From Candidatus Omnitrophota bacterium (lineage in GTDB: Bacteria > Omnitrophota > Gorgyraeia > Duberdicusellales > 4484-171), in the NCBI GenBank assembly GCA_028692655.1, contig JAQUWY010000001.1, positions 24,116 to 88,115 on the forward strand: a stretch of DNA of 64,000 nt, written 5' to 3'. The notes under the pieces were generated by a model. It had not been told where the DNA came from. It searched no databases and was given only the letters and a program-made list of their open reading frames with translations. A program made the position numbers and the translations under genes. Shown one piece after another: positions 3,618 through 41,536 of this stretch (positions within the stretch are counted from its first letter, which is position 1; each line of letters starts with the position of its first letter).

Positions 3618-3646
3618 AAGAATTTTGTAAAAATTTGCTTAGTTGC

Positions 3647-3683
3647 AACCCCGTACTTTTTAAGAAGTACGGGGTTTTATTTA
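3647..3683 (+). terminator. rho-independent terminator
   Basis: aaccccgtactt-tttaagaa-gtacggggtt stem-loop plus T tract after the stop of ORF 2301..3617. Confidence 0.7.
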
Positions 3684-4203
3684 ATATCTCCATAAAAATT
3701 CCTTTCTTTGATAGTTAAGGCGTACTATGTTACACTTATAGGTGCAATGAGAGCGTAGTTATGATATCCTTAAAGTCAACTGTAACCGTAGCGTAGGATT
3801 ATCGGAATTAAGAATTCCAAAAAAAGTTGACTATGCTTATCTGTGTATTGTAATAAACAGTTGTATAATAAATTATACAGGAGAAAATGCAGGAAAGGTT
3901 TTACTGTAGTACTGATGCCAATAGAGCTGTTCCCTGCTGAACTGTAGGCGATGACCAAACCACGACTGTAACAGCCAATTATATGATTATCTGTGTTAAA
4001 TAGCGGGGGATTAACTTAAGAGTTAATAATGTATTCATTTTTTATCGAAAGTAGCTACGTCTACACACAAAGTCTTTTAACGCTCCAAGCATTTTTAGGC
4101 AGATTGCTAATGCTGAATATTTAATTTGTAATATTAGATATTAGGGGTAAAAATGTTACTGATTTATTGAGTTAGTATAATTTAGGGCTTAAGCATAATT
4201 TTA

Positions 4204-4243
4204 TCTCCGCGTCAATTTTCTATTGGTGCGGAGGTTTTTATTT
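4204..4243 (+). terminator. rho-independent terminator closing an ORF-free ~0.5 kb stretch
   Basis: ctccgc...gcggag stem followed by gtttttattt. No ORF upstream of it between 3700 and 4200. Confidence 0.45.
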
Positions 4244-4312
4244 GGGGTGATTTTGGCCTTGCAAATTGTTATGGCATATGGTACAATTTTCTTGTAAAAG
4301 ATAGTAGGACAT

Positions 4313-5257
4313 ATGTCCTATATAGAATATAAGGGGTTTAGCCAGATTATGAAAAGATATCAACTAAGCGATAAGGAAAAGCTGGAAAAAGTATTGCTGG
4401 AAACGGGTATTTCCCGCTCTGAGCTTGCTCGGCGCTTGGAGGTGGATTATAAGACTGTTTATCGCTGGCTGGATAAAGAGGTTAAGCCTCACCCAGCCCA
4501 GGCTCAGGATATTGACCAGCTTTTTAAAGAATATGTTGACTTGAGGGAGATAGTGCTGCAATTGCAAAATAAACTAAAAAGCCCCATGCATATCTTAAAA
4601 GGCAATCAGGTTATCCGGGAAAAATTTCTTTTAGAGATGACTTATCACTCTAACGCCATTGAGGGAAGCCGGATGACCGTAAAAGAGACCCAGAGGGCTT
4701 TTGACGGCAAACAGGTACGGGGCAAGGAGATGTTTGAAGTATTAGAGGTAATAAACCATAAAAATGCACTACAGTTTTTATTAGAAAATATCCGGTCAGG
4801 CTTTAAAATTGATAGCAATTATATCTTTCAATTGCACAGAACAGTAATGTATAATTTTAATAATAAATTGCCCGGAAAATACAGAACCGGCCATGTCAAC
4901 TTGCTGAATACTGAAAAAGCGCTTCCATCCGCCCAGGAAGTTCCTTTGAGGATGGGTAAGTTAATCAAGAATATCAACAATTACGGTAAGGATGCGATAA
5001 GTAAGATTGCCCGCGACCATTATGAATTTGAAGCCATTCATCCTTTTTTTGACGGAAACGGCAGAGTAGGCAGGCTGATAATGATAACCCAGCTTTTAAT
5101 TAAAGGGTTTGCGCCGGCAATTGTCCAGGTTGAGGATAGGTATAAATATTATATGGCTTTGAGCAAGGCTGATTTTGGTAATTTTGAAAATATGGTGCAA
5201 GTGGTTTGTGATAGTATTGTGAAAGGCTATAGGTTGTTAACGGGCAGCATTAAATAG
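4313..5257 (+). CDS. Fic family protein (Fic/Doc AMPylation fold) with N-terminal HTH-like region
   Basis: Canonical Fic motif HPFFDGNGRVGR at residues ~240-251. sigma70-like promoter ttgcaa-17-tacaat at 4259-4287. Alternative start at 4349 has the better SD (aagggg). Confidence 0.8.
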   Translation: MSYIEYKGFSQIMKRYQLSDKEKLEKVLLETGISRSELARRLEVDYKTVYRWLDKEVKPHPAQAQDIDQLFKEYVDLREIVLQLQNKLKSPMHILKGNQVIREKFLLEMTYHSNAIEGSRMTVKETQRAFDGKQVRGKEMFEVLEVINHKNALQFLLENIRSGFKIDSNYIFQLHRTVMYNFNNKLPGKYRTGHVNLLNTEKALPSAQEVPLRMGKLIKNINNYGKDAISKIARDHYEFEAIHPFFDGNGRVGRLIMITQLLIKGFAPAIVQVEDRYKYYMALSKADFGNFENMVQVVCDSIVKGYRLLTGSIK

Positions 5258-5465
5258 GGACAGCGACCATTTTCTTAGAAATTCTAAGGTCTCTATTAAA
5301 TCTCTGCGCAATTATTGTTTTTTCTGCGTAACGAATCTTTATTTTGTTTTGTGTTTCTGTTAAGTAAACGGCTTAAGGAATGAGGCTTTAACGAAACAGA
5401 TTGACATATACGAAAAAGCTAATATAATGGATTTGTGTCCAAAATTTTAGAAAGTTGAGGAACCT

Positions 5466-6002
5466 ATGCTAAAAGAGGTATTTTATAGTACGAGTGCCCA
5501 AAAAGTCTTATGTTTCCTTTTGGCTAATCCTGAAAAGAGATTTTACGATAGGGAAGTCTCAAGGCTTACGAAAATAGGTCGAGCAGCCGGTAATTATTCG
5601 TTGCGTACTTTGATAGCGACAGGCATTGTTAAAAGGGAAAAAAGAGGCAGGATGTATTTTTACCATGTGAGCCTCGATGATCCAATTATAAGGCAGTTAA
5701 AAATAACTCAGAATCTCATCAACATTAAGCCATTAGCTGACAAATTAAGAGATATTTCTCTGAAGATAGTTCTTTATGGAAGCTCCGCAGGCGGGACTAA
5801 TCACGCAGAAAGCGATATAGATCTGTTTGTCCTTACCCGGGATGTTAAGAAGGTCAAGGATATCGTTTATAAGAGCTCTCTTAAGCAAAAGCTTCAGCAC
5901 GTAGTTACAACTCCACAGGACTTGATTAAACTAAAGAAAGATAATCCCGTATTCTATAAGGAAGTTTCCAGCGGGATAGTTCTCCACGAGGAGAAAAGAT
6001 GA
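5466..6002 (+). CDS. minimal nucleotidyltransferase (MNT) with N-terminal winged-helix, antitoxin-type
   Basis: NTase signature LYGSSAGG...ESDIDLFVL (GS...DxD). Stop overlaps the start of the downstream HEPN ORF (ATGA). Confidence 0.75.
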   Translation: MLKEVFYSTSAQKVLCFLLANPEKRFYDREVSRLTKIGRAAGNYSLRTLIATGIVKREKRGRMYFYHVSLDDPIIRQLKITQNLINIKPLADKLRDISLKIVLYGSSAGGTNHAESDIDLFVLTRDVKKVKDIVYKSSLKQKLQHVVTTPQDLIKLKKDNPVFYKEVSSGIVLHEEKR

Positions 6003-6430
6003 GCATTGAGTTCCAAAAGGCCATAGAGAAGAAACGGATATTACACTTTGCGCCAGGGAAAAATCAGGTTAAGAAAGAGCTTCTGGAGGCAGAAAACGAC
6101 TTATCCGAGGCGTTTAATAGGTTTGAGAGTGAAAAATACAAATACGCTACTATTACCGGCTACTATTCGATGTTTCATTCTGCCAGGGCCCTTATTTACT
6201 CAAAGGGATATCGTGAGAAAAGTCATTATTATCTGCTGGTTGCTTTAAACAGCCTTTTTGTAAACGCGGGGATCTTGTCTGAGGAGATAACCTCAGAATT
6301 TCATGATGCTATGGTTTTACGCGAGGATGCCGATTATCACGGCAATTTTACTAAAGAAGGCGCGGAAGCAGTGCTCAAAACAGCAAAGGAATTTTTGGCT
6401 ACTGCTAAGACTGTCTTAAAAACCAAATAA
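5999..6430 (+). CDS. HEPN domain protein (toxin-type partner of the MNT)
   Basis: 143 aa. R-x4-H HEPN motif in LREDADYHG. Translationally coupled to the upstream NTase, the classic HEPN/MNT arrangement. Confidence 0.7.
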   Translation: MSIEFQKAIEKKRILHFAPGKNQVKKELLEAENDLSEAFNRFESEKYKYATITGYYSMFHSARALIYSKGYREKSHYYLLVALNSLFVNAGILSEEITSEFHDAMVLREDADYHGNFTKEGAEAVLKTAKEFLATAKTVLKTK

Positions 6431-6601
6431 GATGAAAAGGGGGCAGATGTTAATGCTCAACAATTGGGTAATTCTTTTGATATGGTATAATGCCATAAAT
6501 TAAAGGAGAACCTAATGCAACACTCACAACAAATTATTGAAAAGAGTCTTCAGCTTGTTTGTGCGGTGTGCAAATTGTTTTAAACAGATAAGGAGGGTTA
6601 T

Positions 6602-6928
6602 ATGGAAGAAAAAAAATTCACTGAGGTAGAAATTAAGGAAGGTGCGCCTTTTGCGGCATTGTCTTATGTGTTTTTTTTGTGGATACTGACTTTTATTTTC
6701 AAAAAAGACAATGCCTTTGCTTTATATCATGCCCGCCAGGGGATAGTGATATTTATAGGAGATGTAATCTGTTTGACATTTATGTTTATACCGATTATAG
6801 GCGTTTTGTTTGGGCTGCTGGCATTAATTTTAGCGGTAGTCCGTGTGTATGGAATTCTACTCTCACTTACCGGCAAGAGCGACAAAATTTATGTAATTAG
6901 TGATTTGGCAGAAAAATTAGTTGTATGA
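6602..6928 (+). CDS. small integral membrane protein (DUF4870-like)
   Basis: 108 aa, two or three hydrophobic helices. Motif ALSYVFF...ALYHARQG typical of DUF4870-type proteins. SD aaggaggg upstream. Confidence 0.5.
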   Translation: MEEKKFTEVEIKEGAPFAALSYVFFLWILTFIFKKDNAFALYHARQGIVIFIGDVICLTFMFIPIIGVLFGLLALILAVVRVYGILLSLTGKSDKIYVISDLAEKLVV

Positions 6929-6985
6929 GGCTGAGAAACCAAAAAACGAAAAAACAGAAAAACAAGAAAACGAAAAGCATAAAGC

Positions 6986-7369
6986 ATGAGTGATATATTT
7001 CGCTTTCAGAAGTTTCCAGTATATAATGAAGCGAAATTATTTCGTCGGAAGTTAAAAGATTTAAGCAGTAGCAAATTTCCCAAGCAAGAACAGTATTGTT
7101 TGCTTTCTCAATTATGGAGAGCCTTAGATTCCATTTTACTTAATATTGCTGAGGGTTCGGATAGATACTCTGATATAGATTTTAGCAGGTTTTTAAATAA
7201 TGCGCTAACTTCTCTGAATGAAGCAGTCGCGTGCTTAGATTGTGCTTTGAGTGACTCTTATATTAATCCGGAGGAATACAGAAATTATCTTTTGGAGGCA
7301 GAGAGCCTATCTAAACAATTAAAAGCTTTTTCTTCAAAGGTAAGAAAATCGGATAGTAAGCAAAAATAG
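6986..7369 (+). CDS. four-helix-bundle protein (23S rRNA intervening-sequence protein family, TIGR02436-like), copy 1
   Basis: 127 aa. Family hallmarks: FPK.E.Y.L..QL.RA..SI..NIAEG and later ...NEA...L. Flanked by A-rich and T-rich low-complexity inverted repeats. Confidence 0.8.
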   Translation: MSDIFRFQKFPVYNEAKLFRRKLKDLSSSKFPKQEQYCLLSQLWRALDSILLNIAEGSDRYSDIDFSRFLNNALTSLNEAVACLDCALSDSYINPEEYRNYLLEAESLSKQLKAFSSKVRKSDSKQK

Positions 7370-7493
7370 ATTTTATTTATGTTTTTCCTGTTTTTAAAGC
7401 TTTTAGTTTCTTAGTTTTTATGTTTTTGGGTTTTTCAGTTTTTATGTCGTTATATCAAAAAAGTACAATTCAACGAAGGAGAAGAGGTTAATT

Positions 7494-9561: not shown

Positions 9562-9980
9562 GGCCGCAGATGATCACTGAAGGAAAAGCGCAGATGATCA
9601 CTAATAAGAAAGATTATATTTACAAAGACTTAACTTATAGAGTAATCGGGTGTTTGTATGTTGTGCATAAAGAATTAGGCAACGTCCATAAAGAAATTAT
9701 TTATCATAAAGCTTTGGCGATAGAATTAAAGAGCAAAAATATAGCATTTGTTGACGAAAAATCCATTGATGTAAAATATAAAGGTAAAAAAATAGGAGCA
9801 TACAGGCCTGATTTTATAATAGAGGATAAAGTTATTCTAGAAATCAAGGTTTCACCGGCTATAACCAGAGCTATGCAGGATCAAGTTTATTTTTATGTAA
9901 AGGGAACTAAATACAAGTTGGTTTTATTGGCTAATTTTGGAACAAGCAAAGTTGGTATCAAAAGATTAATTTATTCATAA
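9558..9980 (+). CDS. GxxExxY family protein (PD-(D/E)xK-like), copy 1
   Basis: KDLTYRVIGCLYVVHKELG...GAYRPDFIIEDKVILEIKV matches the TIGR04256-type GxxExxY family. True start is probably internal (MITNKK...). Flanked by CAGATGATCAC / GTGATCATCTG inverted repeats. Confidence 0.7.
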   Translation: MRPQMITEGKAQMITNKKDYIYKDLTYRVIGCLYVVHKELGNVHKEIIYHKALAIELKSKNIAFVDEKSIDVKYKGKKIGAYRPDFIIEDKVILEIKVSPAITRAMQDQVYFYVKGTKYKLVLLANFGTSKVGIKRLIYS

Positions 9981-10030
9981 TCTGCGATTATCTGTAGTAT
10001 TCAATTTGTGATCATCTGTGTAAAAAAGAT

Positions 10031-11257: not shown

Positions 11258-11308
11258 CACGGATGAACACGGATTTTTAAGAAACACGGATATACACGGA
11301 TAGATATT

Positions 11309-11683
11309 GTGGGAAAACTTGAGCAAGAAGATTTGACCTATAGAATAAGAGGCGCGATTTTCGAAGTGTATAATATATTAGGTCCGGGGTTTAAAGAGAT
11401 AATCTACCATAACTCTTTACGAGAAGAATTTGATAAGCGAAAGATTAAATATGCAGAGAAAAAAAGAGTTAAGATTGACTACAAAGGTAAACAAGTAGGT
11501 TTGTATGAACCGGACTTTGTAGTTGAAGGCAAGGTGATTATAGAGACAAAAGCGGTGGAAGTTATGCCTAAGGCGTTTGAAAAACAGTTGTATAATTATC
11601 TGAAAGCTACAGAGTATAAAATCGGAATTCTGGTTAATTTCGGTAGTGAAAAACTGGATATGAGGCGCCGTATCTACGGATAA
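11309..11683 (+). CDS. GxxExxY family protein, copy 2 (GTG start)
   Basis: LTYRIRGAIFEVYNILGPG...GLYEPDFVVEGKVIIETKAV, paralog of 9558..9980. Flanked by CACGGAT x4 upstream and ATCCGTG-type repeats downstream. Confidence 0.7.
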   Translation: MGKLEQEDLTYRIRGAIFEVYNILGPGFKEIIYHNSLREEFDKRKIKYAEKKRVKIDYKGKQVGLYEPDFVVEGKVIIETKAVEVMPKAFEKQLYNYLKATEYKIGILVNFGSEKLDMRRRIYG

Positions 11684-11816
11684 AATTATCCGTGACAGAG
11701 ATGCAGACACACAAGGATTTAAAATGGATGGATATAGATGAATATATTCTGTGTTAATCTGTATATTCAATCCGTGGGAATCCGTGTATGCAATCTGTGT
11801 GTATCCGTGTAATAAA

Positions 11817-16588: not shown

Positions 16589-18022
16589 ATGAAAAAAAAG
16601 CGTGATTACGATGTTGCGATTATTGGTTCTGGTATAGGGGGCTTAGTTTGCGGTTGCTATTTGGCAAAAGCGGGCTTGAAGACAGCAATAATTGAAAAAC
16701 ATCATTCTCCGGGAGGGTATTGCACTTCTTTTAAACGAAGAGGGTATAGATTTGATACATCTGTGCACTATATAGGGGGGATAAAAAAAGGAGCGCTAAG
16801 TGAAATATTGATGAATTTAGAGATGGAAACCTCATTAAAGTTTCATCAAGATGATCCCTCAGACGGCATTTTTTTACCGGATACGTCAACTTATATTAGA
16901 GCCAATTCTCAGGATACAATTAAAGAATTTAAGAAGAGTTTTCCTTCGGAGAGCAAAGACATTGAAAGGTTTTTTAGATTCATCATGCAAAATGATATCG
17001 CATCTATTTATAGAAAAACGATAGAAATTACTTTAGAAGAATTACTAAATGATTTTTTTAGTGATACGAATCTTCGAGCAACCATAGGAATTCCTTTTTT
17101 AGGAAATATGGGTTTGCCGCCCGGTAAAATTTCTGCTTTTGCTGCCATTGTTTTCTTTCGGGAATTTCTATTAGACCCAGGATATTATCCTGTTGGAGGG
17201 ATGCAAGCTTTTGCTGACTGTTTAGCTAACAGATTTAAAGGCTATGGTGGCGATTTAGTTTTGTCGAAAGAAATTTCCAAAATAATATTAAATAACAATG
17301 TTGCCGAAGGGGTAGTGACTTCATCTGGAAAAGAAATCAAGTCCAAATTCGTAGTTTCTAATATCGATGCTACGCGAACTTTCAAACATCTTATTAAGTC
17401 TAAAACCAAAGAGGCGCTAGTCGTAGACAAGATGGTGCCATCTAATTCTATTTTTGCTGTTTATGTAGGCCTCAAAAGAACTTTTAAAGATAGCTTTAAA
17501 AATCTTTATGATACTTGGCTATTCAAAAATTATGATTTAAATGATAGCTATAAATATTTGACAAAGAACATAGCTGAAGGCCAAATTTCTGGAGTCATGG
17601 TATCATTTCCTTCCTTCAAAGACCTTTCTTTTACAAAGACATCTAAGTTTACTGCCGAAATTTTTACAATGGCCCCATATGTGAGTGAAAATTTTTGGGC
17701 TATCAATCAAGAATTAGTAACTGAGGCGGTTTTAAACTTTGTAGACGAAAATATTCCAGGTTTCAAAAAATACGTAGATTTTAAGTTAGTCGCGACTCCT
17801 CACACGTATTATAGGTATACTATGAATAGGGAAGGAGCTGCTTTTGGTTGGGCGTCAATCATAAACCAGATAAAATCTTCTTTGTTGCCCCAAGTTTCGT
17901 CAGTCAAGAATTTATTTGTAGTTGGGCATTGGTGCACTATGGGAACGGGGCAAGGTGGTGTGTCAACCGTGGCTTTAGCTGGGAAAAAGGTTTACGAAAG
18001 GATAACTAACTTGTTACTATGA
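16589..18022 (+). CDS. FAD-dependent oxidoreductase, phytoene-desaturase (CrtI/COG1233) family, paralog 2
   Basis: DVAIIGSGIGGLVCGCYLAKAGLKTAIIEKHHSPGG. 477 aa. Tandem to paralog 1. Confidence 0.7.
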   Translation: MKKKRDYDVAIIGSGIGGLVCGCYLAKAGLKTAIIEKHHSPGGYCTSFKRRGYRFDTSVHYIGGIKKGALSEILMNLEMETSLKFHQDDPSDGIFLPDTSTYIRANSQDTIKEFKKSFPSESKDIERFFRFIMQNDIASIYRKTIEITLEELLNDFFSDTNLRATIGIPFLGNMGLPPGKISAFAAIVFFREFLLDPGYYPVGGMQAFADCLANRFKGYGGDLVLSKEISKIILNNNVAEGVVTSSGKEIKSKFVVSNIDATRTFKHLIKSKTKEALVVDKMVPSNSIFAVYVGLKRTFKDSFKNLYDTWLFKNYDLNDSYKYLTKNIAEGQISGVMVSFPSFKDLSFTKTSKFTAEIFTMAPYVSENFWAINQELVTEAVLNFVDENIPGFKKYVDFKLVATPHTYYRYTMNREGAAFGWASIINQIKSSLLPQVSSVKNLFVVGHWCTMGTGQGGVSTVALAGKKVYERITNLLL

Positions 18023-20184
18023 ACTTTTTTACGTTTTCTTCTATATTTTCAACCTTTTCAACTTTCGCTATAGCTTTATTACTTTTCGTTAAAGTAAAAA
18101 ATAAAAGTCCAAGCTATAATTTTGCCTACACTTCTTTAGCTTCAGGAATTTGGACCTTGGGAGCGTGGGGATTTTCGACAACTACTTCGTATGATACAGC
18201 GTTGATATGGATCAAGGTTGCTCACATAGGAACAATTTTAACCCCTGCTTTCTTTTTCCATTTCGTTTCGGGTCTTACGAAAAAATATAATAAATTCCTA
18301 ATTTTGTTAAATTATTGTCTTGCAGCGCTGTTTGTTTTTTATACTTTTTTTTATAAAGATTTTATTCATATCAAATATGTTTTTGGTCAATTCTATTTTC
18401 CCATCTATGTTAATCCAGCTTCTGTATTATTTTATATAAGTGTTTACGGAATATTTCTCCCGTATGCGTTTTTTCTATTAATAACTTTTTTTAGAACTAC
18501 CAGGGGCATTTTACGAAATCAGCTTAAATATTTTATAATTGGTCTTATAGTAGCGTGGTCAGGTCCTGAAGGGTTATTCTTGTTTGCCTTAGGGGTTCCG
18601 ATTTATCCTTGTTCGAATATTCTTATAGGTGTCTATCCTTTAATATTTGCTTACGCTATCCTTAAATACCATCTAATGGATATCCGAATTTTTATCTCTC
18701 GGGCGGCGGCGTTTCTCATCAGTTATCCTTTCTTTTTAGGAGTTCCCTTTATATTCGCTTATCGAATGGAGCCGGTTCTGTTTCCTTTATTGGGAATGAA
18801 TTGGTGGCTTGTGCCTACAAGCTTAATTGTTTTCTTTGCCACCCTTGCCCCTTTGGCCTACGGGCAGATAAGAAGCAAAATGGAAAATGCCTTTTTGGCT
18901 GAACAAAAAAGATACCAGAAACTTTTACTTCAAGCTGCAAGCGGTATGGCGACAGAACATGATCTAAATCGTCTGGCAAAGCTGATTGTTTATATTGTAA
19001 AGAAGGCCGTAAGAATTGATTTTGCGGCTATTTTCCTTGATGATAAATCCAACGAGATTTATCGGCTCAAGGCTTATCGTGATAGAGGAAGCAAAATATC
19101 AAAGGATATGGTTTTTCTTTATGAACATCCCCTTGTGCAATATTTAAAGAAGCAAAAAGAACCTGTGCTTTATGAAGAACTGCCTCCTGAGTTAAGAGAA
19201 TCTTTAGGTGAATTCTCCAAAACCAGCCTTATTGTTCCTTCCGGTATTGAAGATAATCTGCTGGGCTTTGTGTTTTTTGGTGAAAAACTTAATCGCCAAC
19301 CTTATACTAACGATGATATTGATGTGTTTAAAATACTTTCCCATCAGGCGGCTTTGGCTATAGAAAATTGTCTTTTTATGGAGGAATCGCGCCAGGCTCA
19401 GGAGAAAATATTTGCCGCTGAAAAACTGGCTTCAATCGGAGGCATCGCTGACGGTGTGGCTCATCAGATTAAAAACCGTTTGAATCAATTTTCTGTTGCC
19501 AGCGGAGAGCTTCGCTATGAAATAAAAGATTTTGCCCAGAAGCATTCCGAGCTGATATTGAAGAATCCTGACCTTAAAAAAACCTTTGATTATTTGGCCG
19601 AAATCGCTACATCTTTTCTTAATAATGTCAAAAGGACTGACGGCATTGTTAAGGGAATACTTAATTTTGCAAGGGTGGAGGAGAAAGAGACTTTTTTCAG
19701 CAAGTTTTCTTTAAAAGAGGTGATAGATGTTTCTACTGAACTTCTGCAGATAAAGCATGAAATTTCCCAGGTACCTCTAAAGCTTAATCTAGGTTCTTCA
19801 GATATTATTTATGGTGTTAAAGCCCAAATGACCGAAGTCGTGTATAATATGCTCGACAACGCCTATGAGGCTATACAGGATAAAGTTATGCGTCTTGAGC
19901 CGGAAGAAAAACTGAAATTTTCTCCTGAAATTAAATTACGCTTGCTTCACGAGCAATCAATAGACGTTATAGAAATCTCTGATAATGGTATTGGAGTCAG
20001 CAAAGAAAATGAGCGCAAAATATTCGCTCCGTTTTTTACCACAAAATCTTCATACAAATCAGGCACAGGCATTGGAATGTATGTTGTAAAGCGTATGGTG
20101 GAGGAAAATCATAAAGGAAAAGTTTGGTTTGAATCTACGCATATGAAAGGAATCAAGTTTTTTGTGGAATTGCCACGGAAATAA
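18019..20184 (+). CDS. sensor histidine kinase with large multi-TM N-terminal domain and GAF-like region
   Basis: About 300 aa of hydrophobic helices. H-box GVAHQIKNRLN. HATPase_c motifs DNGIGV and GTGIGMYVV. Overlaps the upstream gene stop. Confidence 0.8.
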   Translation: MNFFTFSSIFSTFSTFAIALLLFVKVKNKSPSYNFAYTSLASGIWTLGAWGFSTTTSYDTALIWIKVAHIGTILTPAFFFHFVSGLTKKYNKFLILLNYCLAALFVFYTFFYKDFIHIKYVFGQFYFPIYVNPASVLFYISVYGIFLPYAFFLLITFFRTTRGILRNQLKYFIIGLIVAWSGPEGLFLFALGVPIYPCSNILIGVYPLIFAYAILKYHLMDIRIFISRAAAFLISYPFFLGVPFIFAYRMEPVLFPLLGMNWWLVPTSLIVFFATLAPLAYGQIRSKMENAFLAEQKRYQKLLLQAASGMATEHDLNRLAKLIVYIVKKAVRIDFAAIFLDDKSNEIYRLKAYRDRGSKISKDMVFLYEHPLVQYLKKQKEPVLYEELPPELRESLGEFSKTSLIVPSGIEDNLLGFVFFGEKLNRQPYTNDDIDVFKILSHQAALAIENCLFMEESRQAQEKIFAAEKLASIGGIADGVAHQIKNRLNQFSVASGELRYEIKDFAQKHSELILKNPDLKKTFDYLAEIATSFLNNVKRTDGIVKGILNFARVEEKETFFSKFSLKEVIDVSTELLQIKHEISQVPLKLNLGSSDIIYGVKAQMTEVVYNMLDNAYEAIQDKVMRLEPEEKLKFSPEIKLRLLHEQSIDVIEISDNGIGVSKENERKIFAPFFTTKSSYKSGTGIGMYVVKRMVEENHKGKVWFESTHMKGIKFFVELPRK

Positions 20185-20268
20185 TATTTTATGATTACGT
20201 AGTCTGGTATATGTTGACCGTTGAAAGGTTGCGTAGCTGGAAACGTTAAAGGTTTAGCGTTAATCGTT

Positions 20269-20700
20269 ATGGAAGATAAAAAAATAAGAAGCTTTCACGA
20301 TTTAGATGTATATCAAAATTCATATGGAGCCATGCTGATAGTTTATAAAGAAATAATGCCTAAATTACCCAAAGAAGAGGAATATGACCTTAAAGATCAG
20401 CTTAGAAGGTCAACTAAAGCTATTCCAAGATTGATAGCCGAAGGGCATTCTAAAAGACATCAAAAGAGGGGATTTCAGAAATATATAGACGATTCTTTAG
20501 CAGAGTCTAACGAGACAATTGTTTCACTAAGTCAGGCTCGCGATTTGTACGCAAATTACGTAGATACTAAATTATGCAATGAACTGATTGATAGATACGA
20601 TAAAATAAGCAGGCAGTTATATAATTTAGCTTTGGCTTGGGATAAATTTAATAGGCGCAGCCGTAAAACGACAAACGATTCGAGCTACACAACCGTATAG
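20269..20700 (+). CDS. four-helix-bundle protein (23S rRNA IVS protein family), copy 2
   Basis: FHDLDVYQNSY...LRRSTKAIPRLIAEGHSKRH...AESNETI. ATG at 20269. The track ORF starts at 20221. Flanked by ggttgcgtagctgg / cgagctacacaacc inverted repeats. Confidence 0.75.
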   Translation: MEDKKIRSFHDLDVYQNSYGAMLIVYKEIMPKLPKEEEYDLKDQLRRSTKAIPRLIAEGHSKRHQKRGFQKYIDDSLAESNETIVSLSQARDLYANYVDTKLCNELIDRYDKISRQLYNLALAWDKFNRRSRKTTNDSSYTTV

Positions 20701-20766
20701 CTTATTACGGAAAAGCTAATTGTTAATTTTTTATTTTACATTCCCGAATAAGATGAGGGGTGAATT

Positions 20767-21135
20767 ATGAGCAAAGTATTAGTAATTGATGATGAAGTGG
20801 AAGTGGTAGATTTTCTATTTAATTTTCTCAGGAGATTCAAAATTCAGGTTGAGAAAGCTGTGAGCGGTAAAGGGGCTCTTGAGGCTTTTATGAAGGTCAA
20901 GCCCGATTGGGTATTTTTGGACATCAAAATGCCGGATATAGACGGTTTCGAAGTTTTAAAAGCGATAAAATCTATGTCGCCGGAAGTCAACGTTATAATG
21001 ATAACCGGAAAGGAAGATAAAGAATCCCAGGATAAGGCCAGGAAGCTTGGAGCATTTGATTACATAATTAAGCCTTTGGATTTAGAGCAGCTACATAAGA
21101 AAATTCAGGTTAATATACTGGATAAAAATAATTAA
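20767..21135 (+). CDS. response regulator receiver domain protein (CheY-like, stand-alone)
   Basis: VLVIDDE. Phospho-acceptor in LDIKMPDIDGF. Conserved K in IIKP. 122 aa. Confidence 0.85.
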   Translation: MSKVLVIDDEVEVVDFLFNFLRRFKIQVEKAVSGKGALEAFMKVKPDWVFLDIKMPDIDGFEVLKAIKSMSPEVNVIMITGKEDKESQDKARKLGAFDYIIKPLDLEQLHKKIQVNILDKNN

Positions 21136-21189: not shown

Positions 21190-22371
21190 ATGAAAGCACA
21201 TCCCGACTATAGGAAAGACTTGGAGATTGCCGCGAAGCAGATGATTCTTATCCACCGTGTGGATACTTTGATTAAACTGATTCTGCGCACTATAGTCAGG
21301 TCACTTAAGGTTAAACATGCCGGGCTTCTTTTATATGATAAAGATAGAGATGAATATGTGGTTAAGGTGTCCCGCGGTAAGGGTGGATTCAAGATTCCTT
21401 CCGGATTTACCAAAATAAATAAAGATAACGCTTTAATAAGATATTTTACTGAAGATAGCCTGCGTATTTTCGGCAAGGATGTTTTACTTCTGCGCCGGTT
21501 GAATGCTTTTTTAAGCTCAAAAAAGACCAAAAAGGATAAAAACTTAAGAACTTTTCTTGAAAGTATTAAGCTGCAGTTTTCTTTATATAACGCAAAGGCT
21601 TGCATTCCGGGATTTTTTAGGGATAAACTTATTTGTATTTTTTTTCTTGGCCAAAAGTTAGACGGTAAAGATTTCAACCGGGACGAGTTAGGATTTCTTT
21701 CGGTTCTAAGCTCAGACGCAGTAATGGCTATCCAAAATGCTTGGTTTTTCCAGGATTTGAATAACCAGCTTGGTATAAATAAAAAGCTCTTTTTACAGAC
21801 TGTGATGGCGCTTGCTTCAGCAATTGAAGCCAAAGATAAATATACAATAGGCCACACAGAAAGAGTATCAAAATATTCTTTGATAGTTGCCCAGGAAATT
21901 AAAGCAATGAAGAAAGTTCCTTCTAAGGACAGGGAAGATTTTCTGGAAAATTTAAGGATAGCGTCTTTGCTTCACGACATAGGAAAAATCGGCGTCAGGG
22001 AAGATGTGCTTAACAAAAATGGGTTTCTTGATCAAGAAGAACGCCGCGAAATCGAAAAACACCCAACGATAGGGTTTTCGATATTGAAACAAGTTGATGA
22101 ATTTCATGAGCCTATTTTAGGGGTGAAATACCACCATGAGCGTTATGATGGCAAAGGATATCCCGAAGGCATAAAGGGAAAGAAAATTCCTCTTATTGCC
22201 CAGATAATTGCCGTAGCAGATACCTTTGATGCGATGACCTCTGATAGGCCATATCGTAAGGGTTTATCCAAGGAAGAAGCAGCTAGGGTAATTGAGGAAA
22301 ATAAAGGCAAGCAATTTTCTCCTTTGATCGTGGATGCGTTCTTAAGGGTGTATAAGGCAGGGAAGCTGTAA
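21190..22371 (+). CDS. GAF domain / HD-GYP phosphohydrolase
   Basis: HD motif LLHDIGKIGV. HD-GYP signature HHERYDGKGYP. Confidence 0.8.
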   Translation: MKAHPDYRKDLEIAAKQMILIHRVDTLIKLILRTIVRSLKVKHAGLLLYDKDRDEYVVKVSRGKGGFKIPSGFTKINKDNALIRYFTEDSLRIFGKDVLLLRRLNAFLSSKKTKKDKNLRTFLESIKLQFSLYNAKACIPGFFRDKLICIFFLGQKLDGKDFNRDELGFLSVLSSDAVMAIQNAWFFQDLNNQLGINKKLFLQTVMALASAIEAKDKYTIGHTERVSKYSLIVAQEIKAMKKVPSKDREDFLENLRIASLLHDIGKIGVREDVLNKNGFLDQEERREIEKHPTIGFSILKQVDEFHEPILGVKYHHERYDGKGYPEGIKGKKIPLIAQIIAVADTFDAMTSDRPYRKGLSKEEAARVIEENKGKQFSPLIVDAFLRVYKAGKL

Positions 22372-22815
22372 TAGTCGATAGTCCATAGTCCATAGATGAT
22401 AGGCTGTACAGGTTAAGGTTAAGGTTGAGGTTGAGAAAGACAGAAAAACCGAAAAACCAAAGAATCGAAAAACGGAAGAACTAAAAACTGAAAGACCAAA
22501 AAACCGAAGAACATAAAAACTAAAAGACTGAAAAACATAAAGAATAGGGAAGTTAAGACCTTGTCTACCGGCAGGCAGGCGCTAACCGAAAACCGAAAGA
22601 ATATTTCTTTAGTAGAAATACGATAGAAATATATGGAAATACATAGAAATAAATTGTTTTGAATTTTATTCATTTGAATTTGTTTAGGGATTAGAATTTC
22701 GGATTTAGTATTTGGTTGGTTAGTATTATTGGAATTTTTGATGTTCTGGCGCTCTGGTGACTAGTGTACTGGTGTTCTTAAAATATTTATTTAACGCGTA
22801 AGCATTCTGCGAATA

Positions 22816-22903: not shown

Positions 22904-23021
22904 TTTTTTGACCTTTGGTCAAAAAACGGAGCAATTGAGCAATAGACAATAGAACAATAGATGCGTTTGCTCAATTGCGGTCTAATGCTCAATTGTTCTA
23001 TTGTTCTAAAGAAGGTGACAA

Positions 23022-23342
23022 ATGCCTTTCATGTTCGAAAATCTGGAGGTTTATAAGAAGGCTATCGATATCGCCGAAGAGCTTGGCGTTCTCACGGAAT
23101 CTTTTCCAAAAGGTAACTATTATTTAGCCGATCAGTTGAATCGAGCGGCTCTATTAATCGCGACAAATATTGCCGAGGGCAATGGTAAGTATCATAAAGC
23201 AGATAGGATTAACTTTTTTCGCATCGCTCGTGGTTCTGCGTTTGAATGTATTCCCATATTAGAATTATGTAAGCGCAAAAGATTAATCAAAGAAGAGGAC
23301 GCTTCAGGCATCAATTCGGCTAAGGCCTCTTTGAAATGGTAA
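23022..23342 (+). CDS. four-helix-bundle protein (23S rRNA IVS protein family), copy 3
   Basis: LEVYKKAIDIAEEL...FPKGNYYLADQLNRAALLIATNIAEGNGKYH...FRIARGSAFE. Confidence 0.8.
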   Translation: MPFMFENLEVYKKAIDIAEELGVLTESFPKGNYYLADQLNRAALLIATNIAEGNGKYHKADRINFFRIARGSAFECIPILELCKRKRLIKEEDASGINSAKASLKW

Positions 23343-25875: not shown

Positions 25876-26006
25876 GTCGACAGAAGCAGGTAGAGGCTAA
25901 GGCAAAGGCATAGACACAAAGCTTCATTTTCAGCTTAATAAAATCTCGTCAGTATTTGATTGATGGACGAGCAGGCATGTTTAAATAAGGTTTAGCTTTT
26001 ATTTAA

Positions 26007-26642
26007 GTGGGCCGAAACTGTTTGCTAATCTTGGCCTTTTGCGGTAAAATTCCATCAATGGAGAAGAAAAATATATATATAATATCTGGGCCAAATGGTT
26101 CAGGCAAGACTACTTTTGCCAAGGAATTCTTGCCTGATTATGCAAATTGTCCCAATTTTATAAATGCTGACCTTATCGCTCAGGGGTTATCTCCCTTTTC
26201 GCCTCAACAAGTGGCAATCAAAGCCGGCAAACTCGTTCTTGAACAAATCACTCAATTTTCCGAAAAAGGCCTTGATTTTGGGTTTGAGACTACTCTATCC
26301 GGAAAAACTTACCTTAAACATTTTAAGGTTTTTAAGAAAAAGGGTTACCGGCTAAATTTATTTTTTCTCTGGATTCCCAGCCCGCAGTTGTCTATAGTCC
26401 GTATTCAAGATAGAGTTAAACAAGGCGGGCATGATGTGCCAATAGCAGATATCAAGCGTAGGTTTGACAGAAGTATAGAAAAGTTTTTTAAAGAATACCG
26501 CTTATTGGCAGACAAATGGATATTATTTAATAATTCTGGGGAAAAGCCGAAGATTATTGCAAAAAAACAAAACGCACATATCGATATAATTGATAGAGAA
26601 CTAATGACGAAAATTACTAAAAAAGCCGGAGTAAAATTATGA
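26007..26642 (+). CDS. zeta-toxin-like P-loop kinase (AAA-type ATPase)
   Basis: Walker A ISGPNGSGKTTFAKE. Zeta/PezT-like length and layout. GTG start at 26007 or ATG at 26058. Confidence 0.5.
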   Translation: MGRNCLLILAFCGKIPSMEKKNIYIISGPNGSGKTTFAKEFLPDYANCPNFINADLIAQGLSPFSPQQVAIKAGKLVLEQITQFSEKGLDFGFETTLSGKTYLKHFKVFKKKGYRLNLFFLWIPSPQLSIVRIQDRVKQGGHDVPIADIKRRFDRSIEKFFKEYRLLADKWILFNNSGEKPKIIAKKQNAHIDIIDRELMTKITKKAGVKL

Positions 26643-30129: not shown

Positions 30130-30797
30130 CTTTGGTTTTATAACAAGCCGCATTCTTTAGATAACAATATAATGCTTCTGTTCCCGCCGGCCACAGTCCA
30201 CAGTCCACAGTCGATAGTCCACGGTCCACAGACTATAGGATATCCAGGATGAGGTTAAGGTTGAGAAAAACTAAAAAACCAAAAGACAAAAAAACAGAAA
30301 ACTAAAGAACTAAAAACAGAAAAACTGAAAGACCAAAAAACCGAAGAACATAAAAACTAAAAGATTGAAAAACATAAAGAATAGGGAAGTTAAGACCTTG
30401 CCTACCGGCAGGCAGGCGCTAACCGAAAAACGAAAGAACATTTCTTTAGCGGAAATACGGTAGAGATATATGGAAACAAATAGAAATAGATTGTTTGAAA
30501 AAATTCTTCGGGTCACAGGTCGCAAGCCACAGGTATCAGGTAACAGGTTATTTAAAATAACCAATAACCAAGCAACAAGAAACAAATAAATTACAATATT
30601 CAATAACCAAACAGAATGAAAAATCCAAAATCCAAATACTACCAAATCCCAAACAAATTCAAAATCCCAAATCCCAATTTTGGATTTGGTAATTGGGATT
30701 TATTTGGTAGTATTGGCATTATTGGAATTTGGGATTTTTAGCATTTTCGCTCTAACAACTTTGTTATTGAAGATAATGCGTAAGCATTCTGCGAATA

Positions 30798-31092: not shown

Positions 31093-32055
31093 ATGGAAGT
31101 CATTTCAAATTTTATAATTTTCTTCGTTGGCTTGTTGATTTTGATTTTTTCTTCGGGCTGGATGATACAGGCAAGTGTCAAAGTATCCTATCTTTTCAGG
31201 TTATCCCCCTTATTCATAGGTTTAATTTTGGTTGCTTTCGGAACTTCTGTGCCTGAGGCTGGAGTGGGAATAGTGGCGGCTATCCGTAATTACAGAGGCG
31301 TTGCTTTAGGCAATATAATAGGAAGCAATATTGCTAATATTGGCCTTATACTGGGGATTTGTGCTCTTTTTAGGCCGTTGGGTGTAAACAAGAGCATCTT
31401 TAAACGAGAAATGCCAATGATGCTGGCTTCGGTGCTTTTGCTTTTTATCCTAAGCGCTGATTTATGCATAAGCCGCATTGACGGTATTATTTTGCTGGCA
31501 GGTTTTGTAGCTTTTTGTATTATAGCTTATACAGGCGGCAAGAAGTCTTTTGATACCAGCGAAATTGACAATTTTAAACTAAAAAGTTTTCTGAAAAAAA
31601 GCGCCTCAACGCCGTTAGTTCTAATAATTATATTATTGTCATTGTTGGGAGTATTCTGGGGGGCTAACTTAATGGTTAATTCCGGAGTCCTGCTGGCCGC
31701 GGCCTTTGGAATCAGTCCTTGGGTTGTGGGCTTAACTGTTTTTGCTATAGGCACATCGTTGCCTGAACTTTCGGCTTCGCTTACAGCTGCTTTTAAGAAA
31801 GTTCCCAGCATAAGCGTGGGCAATATTGTCGGCAGTAATATTTTTAATATTTTATTTATATTGGGAGTGGTGGCGCTTGTAAGGCCGATCACTATTTCTG
31901 CGGAGATATTTAGTTTAGAGTTGCCGGTATTGCTGATTTATAGCTTGGCGATTTTAGTTGTTATGAGAACCGGTTTTAAGATAACCCGTTGGGAAGGGGG
32001 AGCTTTGCTTTTAGGATATGTAGGATTCTTGGCGGCTTTATTTTTAAAAAGATAA
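31093..32055 (+). CDS. Ca2+/Na+ antiporter (CaCA family, YrbG-like)
   Basis: Two alpha-repeats with GTSVPE and GTSLPE motifs. 320 aa, about 10 TM. Confidence 0.8.
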   Translation: MEVISNFIIFFVGLLILIFSSGWMIQASVKVSYLFRLSPLFIGLILVAFGTSVPEAGVGIVAAIRNYRGVALGNIIGSNIANIGLILGICALFRPLGVNKSIFKREMPMMLASVLLLFILSADLCISRIDGIILLAGFVAFCIIAYTGGKKSFDTSEIDNFKLKSFLKKSASTPLVLIIILLSLLGVFWGANLMVNSGVLLAAAFGISPWVVGLTVFAIGTSLPELSASLTAAFKKVPSISVGNIVGSNIFNILFILGVVALVRPITISAEIFSLELPVLLIYSLAILVVMRTGFKITRWEGGALLLGYVGFLAALFLKR

Positions 32056-32057
32056 AT

Positions 32058-33782
32058 ATGGAATATGTAGTTTTTGCTTTAAAGTATCGACCGGCTGATT
32101 TTGACGGTGTTGTAGGGCAGGAAAATGTGGTTATGTCCTTAAAGAACGCCATAATTAGCAAAAGAGTTCATCACGCTTATCTTTTCAGCGGGCCCAGGGG
32201 AGTGGGTAAAACTTCTTTAGCCAGAATCTTTGCTAAATCCCTGAATTGTTTTGAGGGCCCGAAACCTAAGCCATGTGGGAAATGCCTAAGCTGTGTTGAA
32301 ATCGCCAAAAACCAATCATTGGATGTGATTGAAATAGACGGCGCTTCCAACCGGGGTATCGATGAGATAAGGACTTTACGAGAAAATGTTAAGCTTTCAG
32401 CGGCTCATTCGCGGTACAAAATATATATTATCGATGAAGTTCATATGTTGACTCAAGAGGCTTTCAATGCTCTCCTTAAAACTTTAGAAGAGCCTCCGGC
32501 GCACGTTAAATTTATTTTTGCTACCACTCATCCGCATAAAGTACCACCGACAATATTATCCCGTTGCCAGAAGTTTCAGTTTAACCTTTTGCCGGTGGAG
32601 AAGGTGGTGTTTAAACTTAAAAAAATCGTTGAAGCTGAAAAATTGGATATCAAAGACAGCCTTCTTCATACAATAGCTCAAGCCAGTGGCGGCAGTATCC
32701 GTGATGCCGAATCTTTGCTGGATCAGGTGGTGCCGGTAATTCTTGAAAAAGGTTCCCTGGAAGACGTTTTTTCTTTTCTGGGCATAGTAGACGAAGAGAG
32801 CCTAAACCAGGCTTTGGATAAGATTATAAAAAAAGACTTGCCTTCTTGCCTGGAATTTATCGAAAAGTTATCCGCAGACGGAAAAGATTTGGGGATTTTT
32901 TTAAACGGACTCATTGAACACGCCCGCAACCTTCTTCTGGCAAAGATTTCTCCTAAAAACTTTAAAGAGCTCAGTGAATTGTCTCCCCAGGGCAAAGATG
33001 CTGCCATGGCTTTGACAAAGGTTTCATCTACCGCGGACATATTAAGATTTATAGATTTATTGATAGAGGCCAAAGATCTTTCTCGTACACTCAATACGGC
33101 TCGAATTCCTTTCGAACTTGCCCTCATAAAGTATTGTCATAAACCCGAAACCCGGCAGTCCAAAATACCCGTGAAGAATACTGAAAGTGTTAGTATTCAG
33201 CCTAAAAAGAATTTAGCCGAGAAAATAAATCCGATTAAAAATGTAACGCCGATTGAAGCTTTGGGCAAAGAAATAGACGATGCTGATTTTGATTTGCCGA
33301 TTAATAAGGCTAAAGCCTCTGAATCTAAAGCTGATATCCCGGCGCAAGCCCCGCTGGATTTCGGCCCCGAAGACGATGCGTTATTACCTTTAATAAAAGC
33401 AAGATGGAACCAGATAATAACCTATATACAAAAGGTAAGGGCTGCGATAGCTTCGCATTTGCATTTCTCTCAGCCTGTTTCATCCAGGGGTTGTGTTGTG
33501 ACTATAGGGTTTTTACCGGCCAACTATTTTCATAAAGAAATCGTTGAGACTGCAAAGAATGTCCAATTCATCGAAGAGGCAATGTCAAAGATTATGGAAA
33601 AAAAAGTTGGAGTAAAGTTTGAGCTAAAAGATACTCTCGGAGATTCTAGGCAAACGGATTTTCCCCAGGAAGCTGAAGAAAAGCCAATTCCTGAGGAAAG
33701 TAAGGCGCATAGCGAAGGCGATGATGAATTTTTAAATGATTTACTTGATACTTTTGGAGGAAAATTCCAGACGGAAGAGTAG
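32058..33782 (+). CDS. dnaX: DNA polymerase III subunit gamma/tau
   Basis: Walker A GPRGVGKTS. Zn module CGKCLSC. DEVHML. ATG at 32058. The track ORF begins at 31989. Confidence 0.85.
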   Translation: MEYVVFALKYRPADFDGVVGQENVVMSLKNAIISKRVHHAYLFSGPRGVGKTSLARIFAKSLNCFEGPKPKPCGKCLSCVEIAKNQSLDVIEIDGASNRGIDEIRTLRENVKLSAAHSRYKIYIIDEVHMLTQEAFNALLKTLEEPPAHVKFIFATTHPHKVPPTILSRCQKFQFNLLPVEKVVFKLKKIVEAEKLDIKDSLLHTIAQASGGSIRDAESLLDQVVPVILEKGSLEDVFSFLGIVDEESLNQALDKIIKKDLPSCLEFIEKLSADGKDLGIFLNGLIEHARNLLLAKISPKNFKELSELSPQGKDAAMALTKVSSTADILRFIDLLIEAKDLSRTLNTARIPFELALIKYCHKPETRQSKIPVKNTESVSIQPKKNLAEKINPIKNVTPIEALGKEIDDADFDLPINKAKASESKADIPAQAPLDFGPEDDALLPLIKARWNQIITYIQKVRAAIASHLHFSQPVSSRGCVVTIGFLPANYFHKEIVETAKNVQFIEEAMSKIMEKKVGVKFELKDTLGDSRQTDFPQEAEEKPIPEESKAHSEGDDEFLNDLLDTFGGKFQTEE

Positions 33783-33834
33783 CGTTCGTATATAGTATGT
33801 CGTATATAGCATTTCGCATATAGGATATCGTGGG

Positions 33835-34200: not shown

Positions 34201-34247
34201 CCATCACGCTGTGCACGACATACTATATACTATATACGAATTAATCT

Positions 34248-36886: not shown

Positions 36887-37003
36887 ATAAGAGCAGGTTG
36901 AGGCAGAGGTAGAGGTTGAGGAAATTCCAAATTCAAATATTGCCAAATTCCAAATAATTTCCAAACCTCAATTTCCAAAGCCTAAACGGATTCAATTAGT
37001 TTA

Positions 37004-37494: not shown

Positions 37495-37500
37495 AGCCAA

Positions 37501-37805: not shown

Positions 37806-38040
37806 ATAAATTATCTAAGAACTTTCTTCCTTGACCAGACTTGAGAAATTTCTCTCTTTGCTTGGCCTCTTTTATATTAGAGAATTCTTCGTAATGCAAT
37901 AAATCAAATGGACGATTCAACCTTGTCCAGCGTGTATTTCCCGAGTTATGTTCTTTTAAGCGAATCCTCACATTCTTTGATGTGTAGCCTACGTATCTTT
38001 TACCATTATGTTTGCTTTTTAATACATAAATAAATGGCAT
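37768..38040 (-). CDS. GIY-YIG nuclease domain protein (YhbQ/UPF0213-like)
   Basis: FIYVLKSKHNGKRYVGYTSKNVRIRLKEHNSG matches the GIY...YIG...R...E...N core. Same strand as the intron-containing tRNA and directly 5' of it. The ORF's last ~38 nt overlap the tRNA 5' exon, so the true C-terminus is uncertain. Confidence 0.55.
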   Translation of the reverse strand: MPFIYVLKSKHNGKRYVGYTSKNVRIRLKEHNSGNTRWTRLNRPFDLLHYEEFSNIKEAKQREKFLKSGQGRKFLDNLFPGSSIGRAVGC

Positions 38041-40430: not shown

Positions 40431-40456
40431 AGACTCTTAATAATAAAAGGGACATA

Positions 40457-41530: not shown

Positions 41531-41536
41531 TCCTCA

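Follow-up and report, generated by a model that had tools for sequence, protein, structure and literature searches.

Small mobile cassettes with tandem-repeat arms at operon junctions of an Omnitrophota genome

The window analyzed in this work, a stretch of 64,000 nucleotides from a Candidatus Omnitrophota bacterium (38.8% G+C, nearly all genes on the + strand), holds at least six small mobile cassettes that share one layout. Four of them carry a gene of the four-helix-bundle family PF05635 as cargo and two a gene of the GxxExxY family. The layout consists of a 5' arm of 3–15 tandem units of 7–10 nucleotides (nt), a small open reading frame (ORF) and a 3' arm of reverse-complement units. Every cassette is co-oriented with the surrounding genes, starts 0–6 nt past the upstream stop codon and ends 9–55 nt ahead of the next start codon. 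We consider it likely that these are mobile cassettes of a common design that are co-transcribed with their host operons and, as we predict, cut by RNase III. That ORF and stem form a mobile unit, as the original prediction had proposed for the PF05635 genes, is strongly supported by empty sites in relatives, by differing inserts in two loci with identical flanks and by arms that accompany their ORF lineages at unrelated junctions.

All four genes named in the original prediction matched PF05635 (23S_rRNA_IVP, four-helix bundle; cut-off 33.8 bits) with scores of 72.8–128.8 bits, and TIGR02436 (cut-off 24) with 58.5–119.9 bits:

6986–7369, + strand: copy 1 ORF, cargo of cassette 1, 127 aa; PF05635 E = 3.9e-24, TIGR02436
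20269–20700, + strand: copy 2 ORF, cargo of cassette 2, 143 aa from ATG; PF05635 E = 3.1e-20, TIGR02436
23022–23342, + strand: copy 3 ORF, 106 aa; PF05635 E = 7.3e-25, TIGR02436
33835–34200, + strand: copy 4 ORF, starting at TTG 33835 or ATG 33841; PF05635 E = 1.2e-37, TIGR02436

A six-frame hidden Markov model scan of the window gave no fifth PF05635 copy. Judged by eye, the four copies align poorly with each other. Copy 4 matched the solved chain of Xanthomonas XCC0516 (PDB 2GSC) at 5.6e-21.

Each of the four genes had been described as bracketed by inverted repeats. This holds for copies 1, 2 and 4, and no bracketing repeat was found at copy 3. The arms and the hairpin at copy 3 are as follows, with arrays called by Tandem Repeats Finder (TRF) where given:

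6929–6985, + strand: cassette 1, 5' arm, A-rich tandem 7–8-nt units of GAAAAAC type; stem 6930–6959; TRF 6936–6976, period 8
7370–7447, + strand: cassette 1, 3' arm, T-rich tandem units complementary to the 5' arm; stem 7408–7439; TRF 7376–7447
20185–20268, + strand: cassette 2, 5' arm, from the histidine kinase stop to the ORF; stem 20191–20247; autocorrelation strongest at lag 7
20674–20723, + strand: cassette 2, 3' arm, starting inside the last codons of the copy 2 ORF; 39 long-range pairs
22929–23008, + strand: hairpin upstream of copy 3, self-contained CAATAGA/TCTATTG units; ORF not bracketed
33783–33834, + strand: cassette 4, 5' arm, CGTATAT-type heptamers; stem 33783–33810; TRF 33786–33831, period 7
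34201–34247, + strand: cassette 4, 3' arm, ending just ahead of the recR ATG; stem 34208–34238, 25 pairs; array called by TRF

The A-rich and T-rich tracts noted around copy 1 correspond to 48-nt arms at 6936–6983 and 7394–7441 that are 77% complementary; the local-complementarity score of 21 was equaled by 1 of 501 control genes, and the cassette folded with 28 long-range pairs. Its 5' arm begins 1 nt past the stop codon of an upstream gene of 108 aa. Around copy 2, the two strings quoted in the original prediction are present in the window and pair at 12 of 14 positions only; the inverted repeat extends to 21 nt at 86% (20227–20247 with 20674–20694), and the flank score lies in the 2.2% tail of the controls. 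The perfect 18-bp repeat assigned to copy 4 proved incorrect, as the window does not contain the 3' string quoted for it, cgacatactatatacgaa, as one uninterrupted stretch. The actual sequence on the 3' side is cgacatactatatacTATATACgaa, with perfect pairing over 15 bp followed by an extra heptamer, TATATAC. The 5' arm of cassette 4 begins directly past the dnaX stop codon.

Two further cassettes of like design, missed in the original prediction, lie in a fatty-acid synthesis operon and carry GxxExxY ORFs (PD-(D/E)XK / PDDEXK_3; cut-off of PF13366, 22 bits). Cassette g1 sits between fabG and a ketoacyl synthase (KAS) gene at about 9562–10020, and cassette g2 between the KAS gene and a FabA/FabZ-like gene at 11258–11812:

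9562–9611, + strand: g1 5' arm, GCAGATGATCAC twice; stem 9565–9594; TRF 9565–9611
9594–9980, + strand: g1 cargo, GxxExxY / PDDEXK_3; PF13366 E = 1.5e-32, 112.9 bits
9981–10020, + strand: g1 3' arm, GTGATCATCTG; stem 9991–10020, 24 pairs
11258–11308, + strand: g2 5' arm, CACGGAT four times, directly past the KAS stop codon; stem 11258–11304
11309–11683, + strand: g2 cargo, GxxExxY / PDDEXK_3, 124 aa; PF13366 E = 3.8e-36, 124.4 bits
11684–11812, + strand: g2 3' arm, ATCCGTG units; stem 11767–11809, 34 pairs; TRF 11748–11811

The g1 5' arm directly follows the fabG stop and overlaps the start of the ORF, which was placed at GTG 9558 by the ORF lister and has in-frame ATG codons at 9570 and 9594. 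Its 3' arm stops 11 nt short of the KAS gene start.

To assess the bracketing statistically, local complementarity was scored between the 100-nt flanks of each of 11 cargo genes, drawn from the window and related loci, and of 501 control genes. Scores of at least 15.5 were reached by 7 of the 11 cargo genes versus a single control, which is an IS200-like transposase gene with 26-bp terminal inverted repeats of its own. Copy 2 and g1 scored in the 2–4% tail of the controls, and g2 was significant by shared 6-mers only. RNAduplex energies of the 100-nt flanks did not discriminate, with a control mean of −31 kcal/mol (sd 8.8); local complementarity and whole-cassette folds were therefore used instead. 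In minimum-free-energy (MFE) folds of whole cassettes of 465–660 nt, 9 of 10 looped out the ORF with 24–78 long-range pairs, and at least 24 such pairs occurred in 13 of 231 small control genes. Cassettes 1, 2, 4, g1 and g2 formed 24–39 long-range pairs and copy 3 none. The stems in the window are thus, copy 3 excepted, long enough for the RNase III-type duplex that the original prediction had envisaged.

The arms share a short repeat period. Autocorrelation of 29 arms peaked at lag 7 in 16, at lag 8 in seven and at lag 10 in six, the lag-10 arms being those of GxxExxY cassettes. TRF arrays with period 7 or 8 are found mostly at the cassettes, in two tRNA-Ser leaders and at 36895–36979. On the plus strand, the cassettes showed neither a sigma-70-type promoter nor an intrinsic terminator. 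An obvious ribosome-binding site is absent from most of them, as it is from several host genes.

Comparison with relatives, which the original prediction had called for in search of empty sites, showed sites without insertion at three of the four positions. RecR relatives (55–79% identity) stem nearly all from Candidatus Omnitrophota metagenome-assembled genomes (MAGs), and the proteins of the window have their matches on an Omnitrophica MAG contig of 145 kb. The closest RecR relative (L002, 79%) is labeled as a Methanosarcinales archaeon MAG, yet has a bacterial dnaX–recR arrangement; the label probably reflects a binning error. In the window, copy 4 lies between dnaX (31989–33782) and recR (34248–34847), as had been noted. 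In most of about 50 Omnitrophota loci, these two genes are separated by a gap of 2–220 bp without an ORF; about 48 relatives have the two next to each other and lack ybaB there. Among the 12 spacers of at least 90 nt, nine are strongly folded ORF-less hairpins (z ≤ −2.9), several of them with 7-nt periodicity. One relative (L008) carries at this junction a GxxExxY ORF (TIGR04256, 120.2 bits) with CACGAAT/ATTCGTG arms. The missing ybaB gene, to which the original prediction drew attention, is indeed absent from the window. It is, however, missing at dnaX–recR in all of the approximately 50 Omnitrophota relatives, whether they carry a cassette or not, and present there in Clostridia loci. Its absence is therefore a trait of the lineage, and loss of ybaB through the insertion is ruled out.

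Two loci from different MAGs, L023 and L024, are 100% identical through the end of dnaX and the beginning of recR and differ in their inserts. L023 contains a 146-nt hairpin with TGCAAAT-type arms, L024 a four-helix-bundle cassette of about 590 nt with GGCACAAAG-type arms. The swapped segments sit within a shared outer stem, which hints at insertion into hairpin tips, as in rRNA helices.

At the second site, copy 2 separates a histidine kinase (18019–20184) from its response regulator (20767–21135), again as originally described. This junction is empty in three metagenomic relatives (L068, L069 and L070). In L072 it holds another four-helix-bundle lineage, nearer to copy 3 than to copy 2, and in L064 a pseudogene of a third lineage; several of the occupants have repeat arms of their own. 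In L065 (1–360), the junction is occupied by another small ORF of unassigned family that seems to be frameshifted; the ATGAACA-type repeats after it hint at yet another type of cargo. At the copy 1 site, the 108-aa gene directly abuts a LOG-family gene in L090, with TAA followed immediately by ATG. Cassettes are gained, lost and swapped at exact positions, and their arms gain or lose whole repeat units. The pattern named in the original prediction as speaking for vertical inheritance, relatives with the same genes in conserved synteny and without repeats, was not observed.

The region 3618–6928 belongs to about 3.9 kb of accessory genes, at a place where relatives have an Alginate_exp porin gene 135–365 nt upstream of the LOG-family gene. 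Ahead of LOG, the window carries Fic/DOC, a nucleotidyltransferase–HEPN pair, the 108-aa membrane protein and cassette 1. Elsewhere, at 26007–26642, it encodes a zeta-toxin-like gene.

Each cassette lineage retains its own arm sequence, and one lineage occupies differing junctions in differing genomes. Homologs of copy 4 (74–80% aa and 71–77% nt identity) were found at four operon junctions:

L096: copy 4 homolog between PAS and CheR genes
L098: copy 4 homolog between dnaX and recR
L099: copy 4 homolog between a GGDEF response regulator and a response regulator
L100: copy 4 homolog between GspE and GspF genes

All of them start immediately past the upstream stop codon, end 0–20 nt ahead of the next start and have the arm pair TTCGTATATAG... 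/ ...CGATATACTATATACGACATACGA in common. Their arms are recognizably alike, with (T)TTCGTATATAGTAT...CGTATATCG on the 5' side and CGATATACTATATACGACATACGA...ACGAA on the 3' side; CGATATACTATATACGAC is an example of the arm motifs of copies 4 and 1. Viral collections yielded no relative of copy 4. An IMG/VR viral contig (L101, 3150–3400) contains an array of about 250 nt of CGTATAC/ATCGTATACCAGTAT type, resembling the copy 4 arm units, without a four-helix-bundle ORF. Homologs of copy 1 (66–77% aa identity) occur in several phyla, with arms of GAAAAAC or GAAGAAC type in other contexts. One at 77% lies downstream of a giant gene and has AAAAAAC/GTTTTTC arms, and one at 70% in a Nealsonbacteria genome (candidate phyla radiation) has GAAGAAC/GTTCTTC arms. 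Two contigs encoding an identical copy 1-lineage protein (L105 and L107) differ in the length of the 3' arm.

A species-level pair illustrates the recent history of cassette 4. Over 3.7 kb, the window shares 88.5% identity with L063; the part of L063 upstream of window position ~30710 did not align to the window. Here, the copy 4 cassette shows 94–99% nt identity versus 69–93% for dnaX, and synonymous divergence (dS) amounts to 0.09 in the copy 4 ORF versus 0.90 in the adjacent 3' part of dnaX. From this comparison, the cassette seems either to be of more recent origin than its flanks or to have been exchanged lately. Between the two 3' arms, a single heptamer differs, reading TATATAC or GACATAC.

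Other phyla have cassettes of this design too, among them on plasmids of cyanobacteria and Bacteroidota. A tblastn survey of plasmids with copy 4 revealed four-helix-bundle genes wedged inside operons in the same orientation, and a GxxExxY cassette is listed with them:

Nostoc sp. C052: between a conjugation gene and a hypothetical gene, GGGAACA / TGTTCCC arms, 36 long-range pairs
Geminocystis: between a parA-like ATPase gene and parB, AAGGGAA / TTCCCTT arms, 66 long-range pairs
Picosynechococcus (PCC 7003): between cas10 and cmr3, GGAGATAA / TTATCTCC arms, 27 long-range pairs
Riemerella (R. anatipestifer): behind a gene for Fe-S assembly, AAGGTTC / GAACCTT arms, 34 long-range pairs
Bacteroides finegoldii: GxxExxY ORF between radA and an FAD protein gene, CAGAGGA-type arms, 33 pairs

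The Picosynechococcus cassette (L084, 1454–1881) splits a CRISPR-Cas operon between cas10/cmr2 and cmr3. In Gemmatirosa, a hairpin upstream is combined with an array downstream. A GxxExxY search found the ATCCGTG motif of the g2 arms also in Treponema and in a Fusobacteria plasmid.

How might such cassettes be tolerated inside operons? Since no promoter or terminator of their own was found on the plus strand, we assume that they are co-transcribed with the host operon. In the transcript, the arms would pair as a duplex of 24–39 bp, loop out the ORF and bring the two host cistrons together. RNase III would then cut the arm duplex, as it does in rRNA intervening sequences (IVSs). The cut would free the ORF RNA and separate the cistrons, and the insertion could thus be nearly harmless to the host operon. 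We infer RNase III excision from the predicted stems and by analogy to the rRNA elements.

Several observations weigh against this explanation. At copy 3, the sole strong inverted repeat (22905–22947 with 22980–23022) lies entirely upstream of the ORF; the flank score of 7.0 is not significant, there are no long-range pairs and a 3' arm is missing. Since the ORF covers positions 1–94 of the 106 in the Pfam model and lacks the C-terminal ~12 positions, copy 3 is probably a decaying cassette. Bracketing arms are likewise absent from the four-helix-bundle ORF of L038, whose flank score is not significant. In Pseudanabaena (L083, 1292–1971), where the insert splits a plasmid-borne CRISPR-Cas operon between cas6 and cas4, the arrays on both sides are direct and not inverted, with about 15 AAAAGCT units upstream and about 10 AAAAGCC units downstream. 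MFE folds of RNAs of about 500 nt are noisy, as 11–15% of controls have at least 20 long-range pairs. No target-site duplication is visible at six aligned junctions, none of the cassettes encodes a transposase and no insertion mechanism was identified; moreover, all Omnitrophota evidence comes from metagenome-assembled contigs. Finally, 14 arm pairs showed no excess of G·U pairs over A·C mismatches (26 versus 21, p = 0.56), and the sense strand gave the more stable fold in only 11 of 14 cassettes. These data thus do not demonstrate selection on the stem at the level of RNA, and the inverted repeats could equally be a feature of the DNA.

A possible but less probable explanation is hence that the arms act at the DNA level, as terminal inverted repeats or as a hairpin or cruciform for a trans-acting host enzyme, with an RNA stem that is incidental or absent. 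The balance of G·U and A·C mismatches agrees with this, and so does the conservation of lineage-specific arms together with their ORF, which is reminiscent of transposon ends. The window also encodes an IS200-like Y1 transposase, whose family has hairpins of single-stranded DNA as substrates, and the swapped L023/L024 inserts lie within an outer stem common to both loci, as if the target had been the tip of a hairpin. In contrast, arm sequences differ wholly between lineages, which makes a single sequence-specific enzyme unlikely, and target-site duplications were not seen. Co-orientation of all cassettes with the host operon suggests a constraint at the transcript level, and for the homologous rRNA elements, RNase III cleavage of the RNA itself has been demonstrated (PMC4990558).

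Rather improbable, in our view, is an origin of the heptamer hairpins as ordinary intercistronic structures that arose by replication slippage and were kept as mRNA stabilizers or regulators, the ORFs being later passengers in their loops. The ORF-less hairpins in nine of the 12 long dnaX–recR spacers would fit this idea, as would the large ORF-less heptamer blocks ahead of both tRNA-Ser genes and the differing repeat copy numbers of near-identical loci (L105 versus L107, the window versus L063). An excess of heptamer repeats in bacterial intergenic DNA is, moreover, known and unexplained (PMC4692102, PMC4679880). However, one arm sequence accompanies one ORF lineage at four unrelated junctions, which is unexpected if arms arose locally at each site. 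That the four-helix-bundle genes are vertically inherited, functional operon members next to coincidental low-complexity repeats is extremely improbable and ruled out by the comparative data: co-orientation with neighbors and moderate purifying selection on the copy 4 ORF (dN/dS = 0.27 against L063) would agree with it, but relatives are empty at three positions, differing lineages occupy one site, one lineage occupies differing operons and high flank scores set most cargo genes apart from the controls.

The ORF-less blocks ahead of the tRNA-Ser genes are the following:

22371–22775, + strand: ORF-less heptamer block, arrays of ATAGTCC, AGGTTA and GAAAAAC type; leads into tRNA-Ser(gga)
30191–30737, + strand: paralogous ORF-less heptamer block, CCACAGT and AAAAACN arrays and an AAATCCC/ATTTGG hairpin; leads into tRNA-Ser(gct)

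Both loci (22371–22815 and 30191–30797) thus have paralogous non-coding leaders of 450–600 nt that consist of successive heptamer arrays. Each continues with a terminator-like hairpin and then a heptamer hairpin; a four-helix-bundle ORF, copy 3, comes next at the gga locus only. Solitary arrays with no adjacent cargo ORF were seen at 2230–2290, 25876–25925, 36895–36979 and 38200–38240; they are of ATCCGTG, GGCAAAG-like, AAATTCC and AATCGGTGT type and may be remnants or ORF-less members of the cassette class.

Apart from two tRNAs, an Rfam scan of the window reported a group I intron only, and no rRNA. The intron is full-length (37495–37810, − strand, 82.7 bits), and its flanks resemble two halves of a tRNA gene that was not called by ARAGORN. 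Just upstream on the same strand, a 90-aa ORF (37768–38040, −) looks GIY-YIG nuclease-like by eye. The product of the Y1 transposase gene (40440–41545) is 332 aa long and combines a Y1 transposase domain of IS200-like type with a helix-turn-helix domain of DnaA_C type; the gene lies between the two arms of a near-perfect inverted repeat of 26 bp, GGGACGGAGTTAACTTAATAACTTAT, which is unrelated to the cassette arms. A segment of about 135 nt at 38310–38450, including a −35/−10-like TTGTAA...TATAAT, is near-exactly duplicated at 41540–41680; one copy lies downstream of the tRNA/intron region and the other downstream of the Y1 transposase.

To our knowledge, the origin, mobility mechanism and function of rRNA IVSs and of S23p/four-helix-bundle ORFs have been unexplained for more than 30 years. 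The cassettes have the geometry of these elements, as the original prediction had recognized, and the literature on the Coxiella IVS bears this out (PMC4990558). In Coxiella burnetii, the helix-45 IVS measures 428–444 nt, has a 28-bp terminal stem and carries the S23p ORF in its loop; tandem GACAGAT heptamers, whose copy number varies between strains, precede the ORF, and the IVS is cleaved by RNase III (PMC4990558). Compared with the rRNA IVSs of Coxiella and Leptospira, our cassettes are similar in length (430–560 nt) and in having terminal inverted repeats, with stems of 24–39 bp versus 28 bp in Coxiella. They likewise share heptamers of variable copy number beside the ORF, a PF05635 ORF in the loop, and a sporadic distribution with inferred horizontal transfer (PMC4990558). 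Stem-forming complementary termini and sporadic distribution thus agree with what defines an IVS, and a location in 23S rRNA helix 9, 25 or 45 does not: the cassettes reside at mRNA intercistronic junctions or in a tRNA leader and not at the tip of an rRNA helix. They also differ in their second cargo family, GxxExxY, and in that RNase III cleavage is known for the IVSs and predicted here.

The accessory variability determinant (Avd) protein of diversity-generating retroelements shows some likeness to the cargo, as copy 4 and the L024 ORF gave weak NF033474 matches and close homologs are annotated as PF22296 (bAvd). However, these matches, of 22.9 bits for copy 4 and 39.3 bits for the L024 ORF, are far under the cut-off of 80, and copies 1–3 gave none. 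The genes adjoining the cassettes include the histidine kinase and response regulator, dnaX and recR, fab genes and LOG, and no reverse transcriptase; template and variable repeats were not searched for. The sub-cut-off scores and the missing reverse transcriptase next to any cassette rule out an identity as retroelement Avd.

Miniature inverted-repeat transposable elements (MITEs) and repetitive extragenic palindromic sequences or bacterial interspersed mosaic elements (REP/BIME), which are mobilized by Y1 enzymes of the REP-associated tyrosine transposase (RAYT) type, are likewise small, intergenic, hairpin-forming and multi-copy without a transposase of their own, and a Y1 gene is present in the window. 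In contrast to these, the cassette arms are lineage-specific tandem arrays of 7–10-nt units and not one conserved palindrome, a conserved ORF is carried, insertion begins at stop codons in strict co-orientation, and no target-site duplication was seen. The cassettes do not appear to be typical MITE or REP elements. In the early mRNA of phage T7, intercistronic RNase III sites are short local hairpins that have no ORF in the loop and are not mobile. They resemble the cassettes, which are mobile and have an ORF in the loop, in proposed function only, as a duplex whose cutting separates cistrons.

Intergenic arrays of heptamer repeats are also familiar from the short tandemly repeated repetitive (STRR) sequences of cyanobacteria. 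Direct arrays of this kind, of unknown function, have been described as GGGNATC in Xanthomonas and Nostoc and as TAACTGA in Beggiatoaceae (PMC4692102, PMC4679880). Like the cassette arms, they consist of tandem 7-nt units in spacers of co-directional genes and vary rapidly in length. Term searches of both articles turned up neither S23/four-helix-bundle genes nor an ORF enclosed by such an array and an inverted counterpart. In a literature coverage that was incomplete, we found no account of cassettes outside rRNA that combine heptamer arms with four-helix-bundle or GxxExxY cargo; a prior description is possible.

We may thus speculate, with considerable doubt, that heptamer-arm cassettes form one pan-bacterial class of elements lacking a transposase, that rRNA IVSs are the subset that landed in rRNA, that the arms explain much of the heptamer excess in cyanobacteria and Xanthomonas, and that the cargo drives mobility. 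If this were true, the cargo proteins could do so either as an Avd-like protein together with a reverse transcriptase provided in trans or as a PD-(D/E)XK homing nuclease acting at hairpins. The cassettes show that the IVS design is not tied to rRNA and represents a general, lineage-structured mobile cassette, inserted precisely at intercistronic junctions, found in several phyla and with two cargo families. They provide natural presence, absence and swap polymorphisms at defined sites. For annotation, this means that cassette ORFs split operons and are probably not operon members; for engineering, the cassettes suggest a natural model for low-polarity insertion between cistrons.

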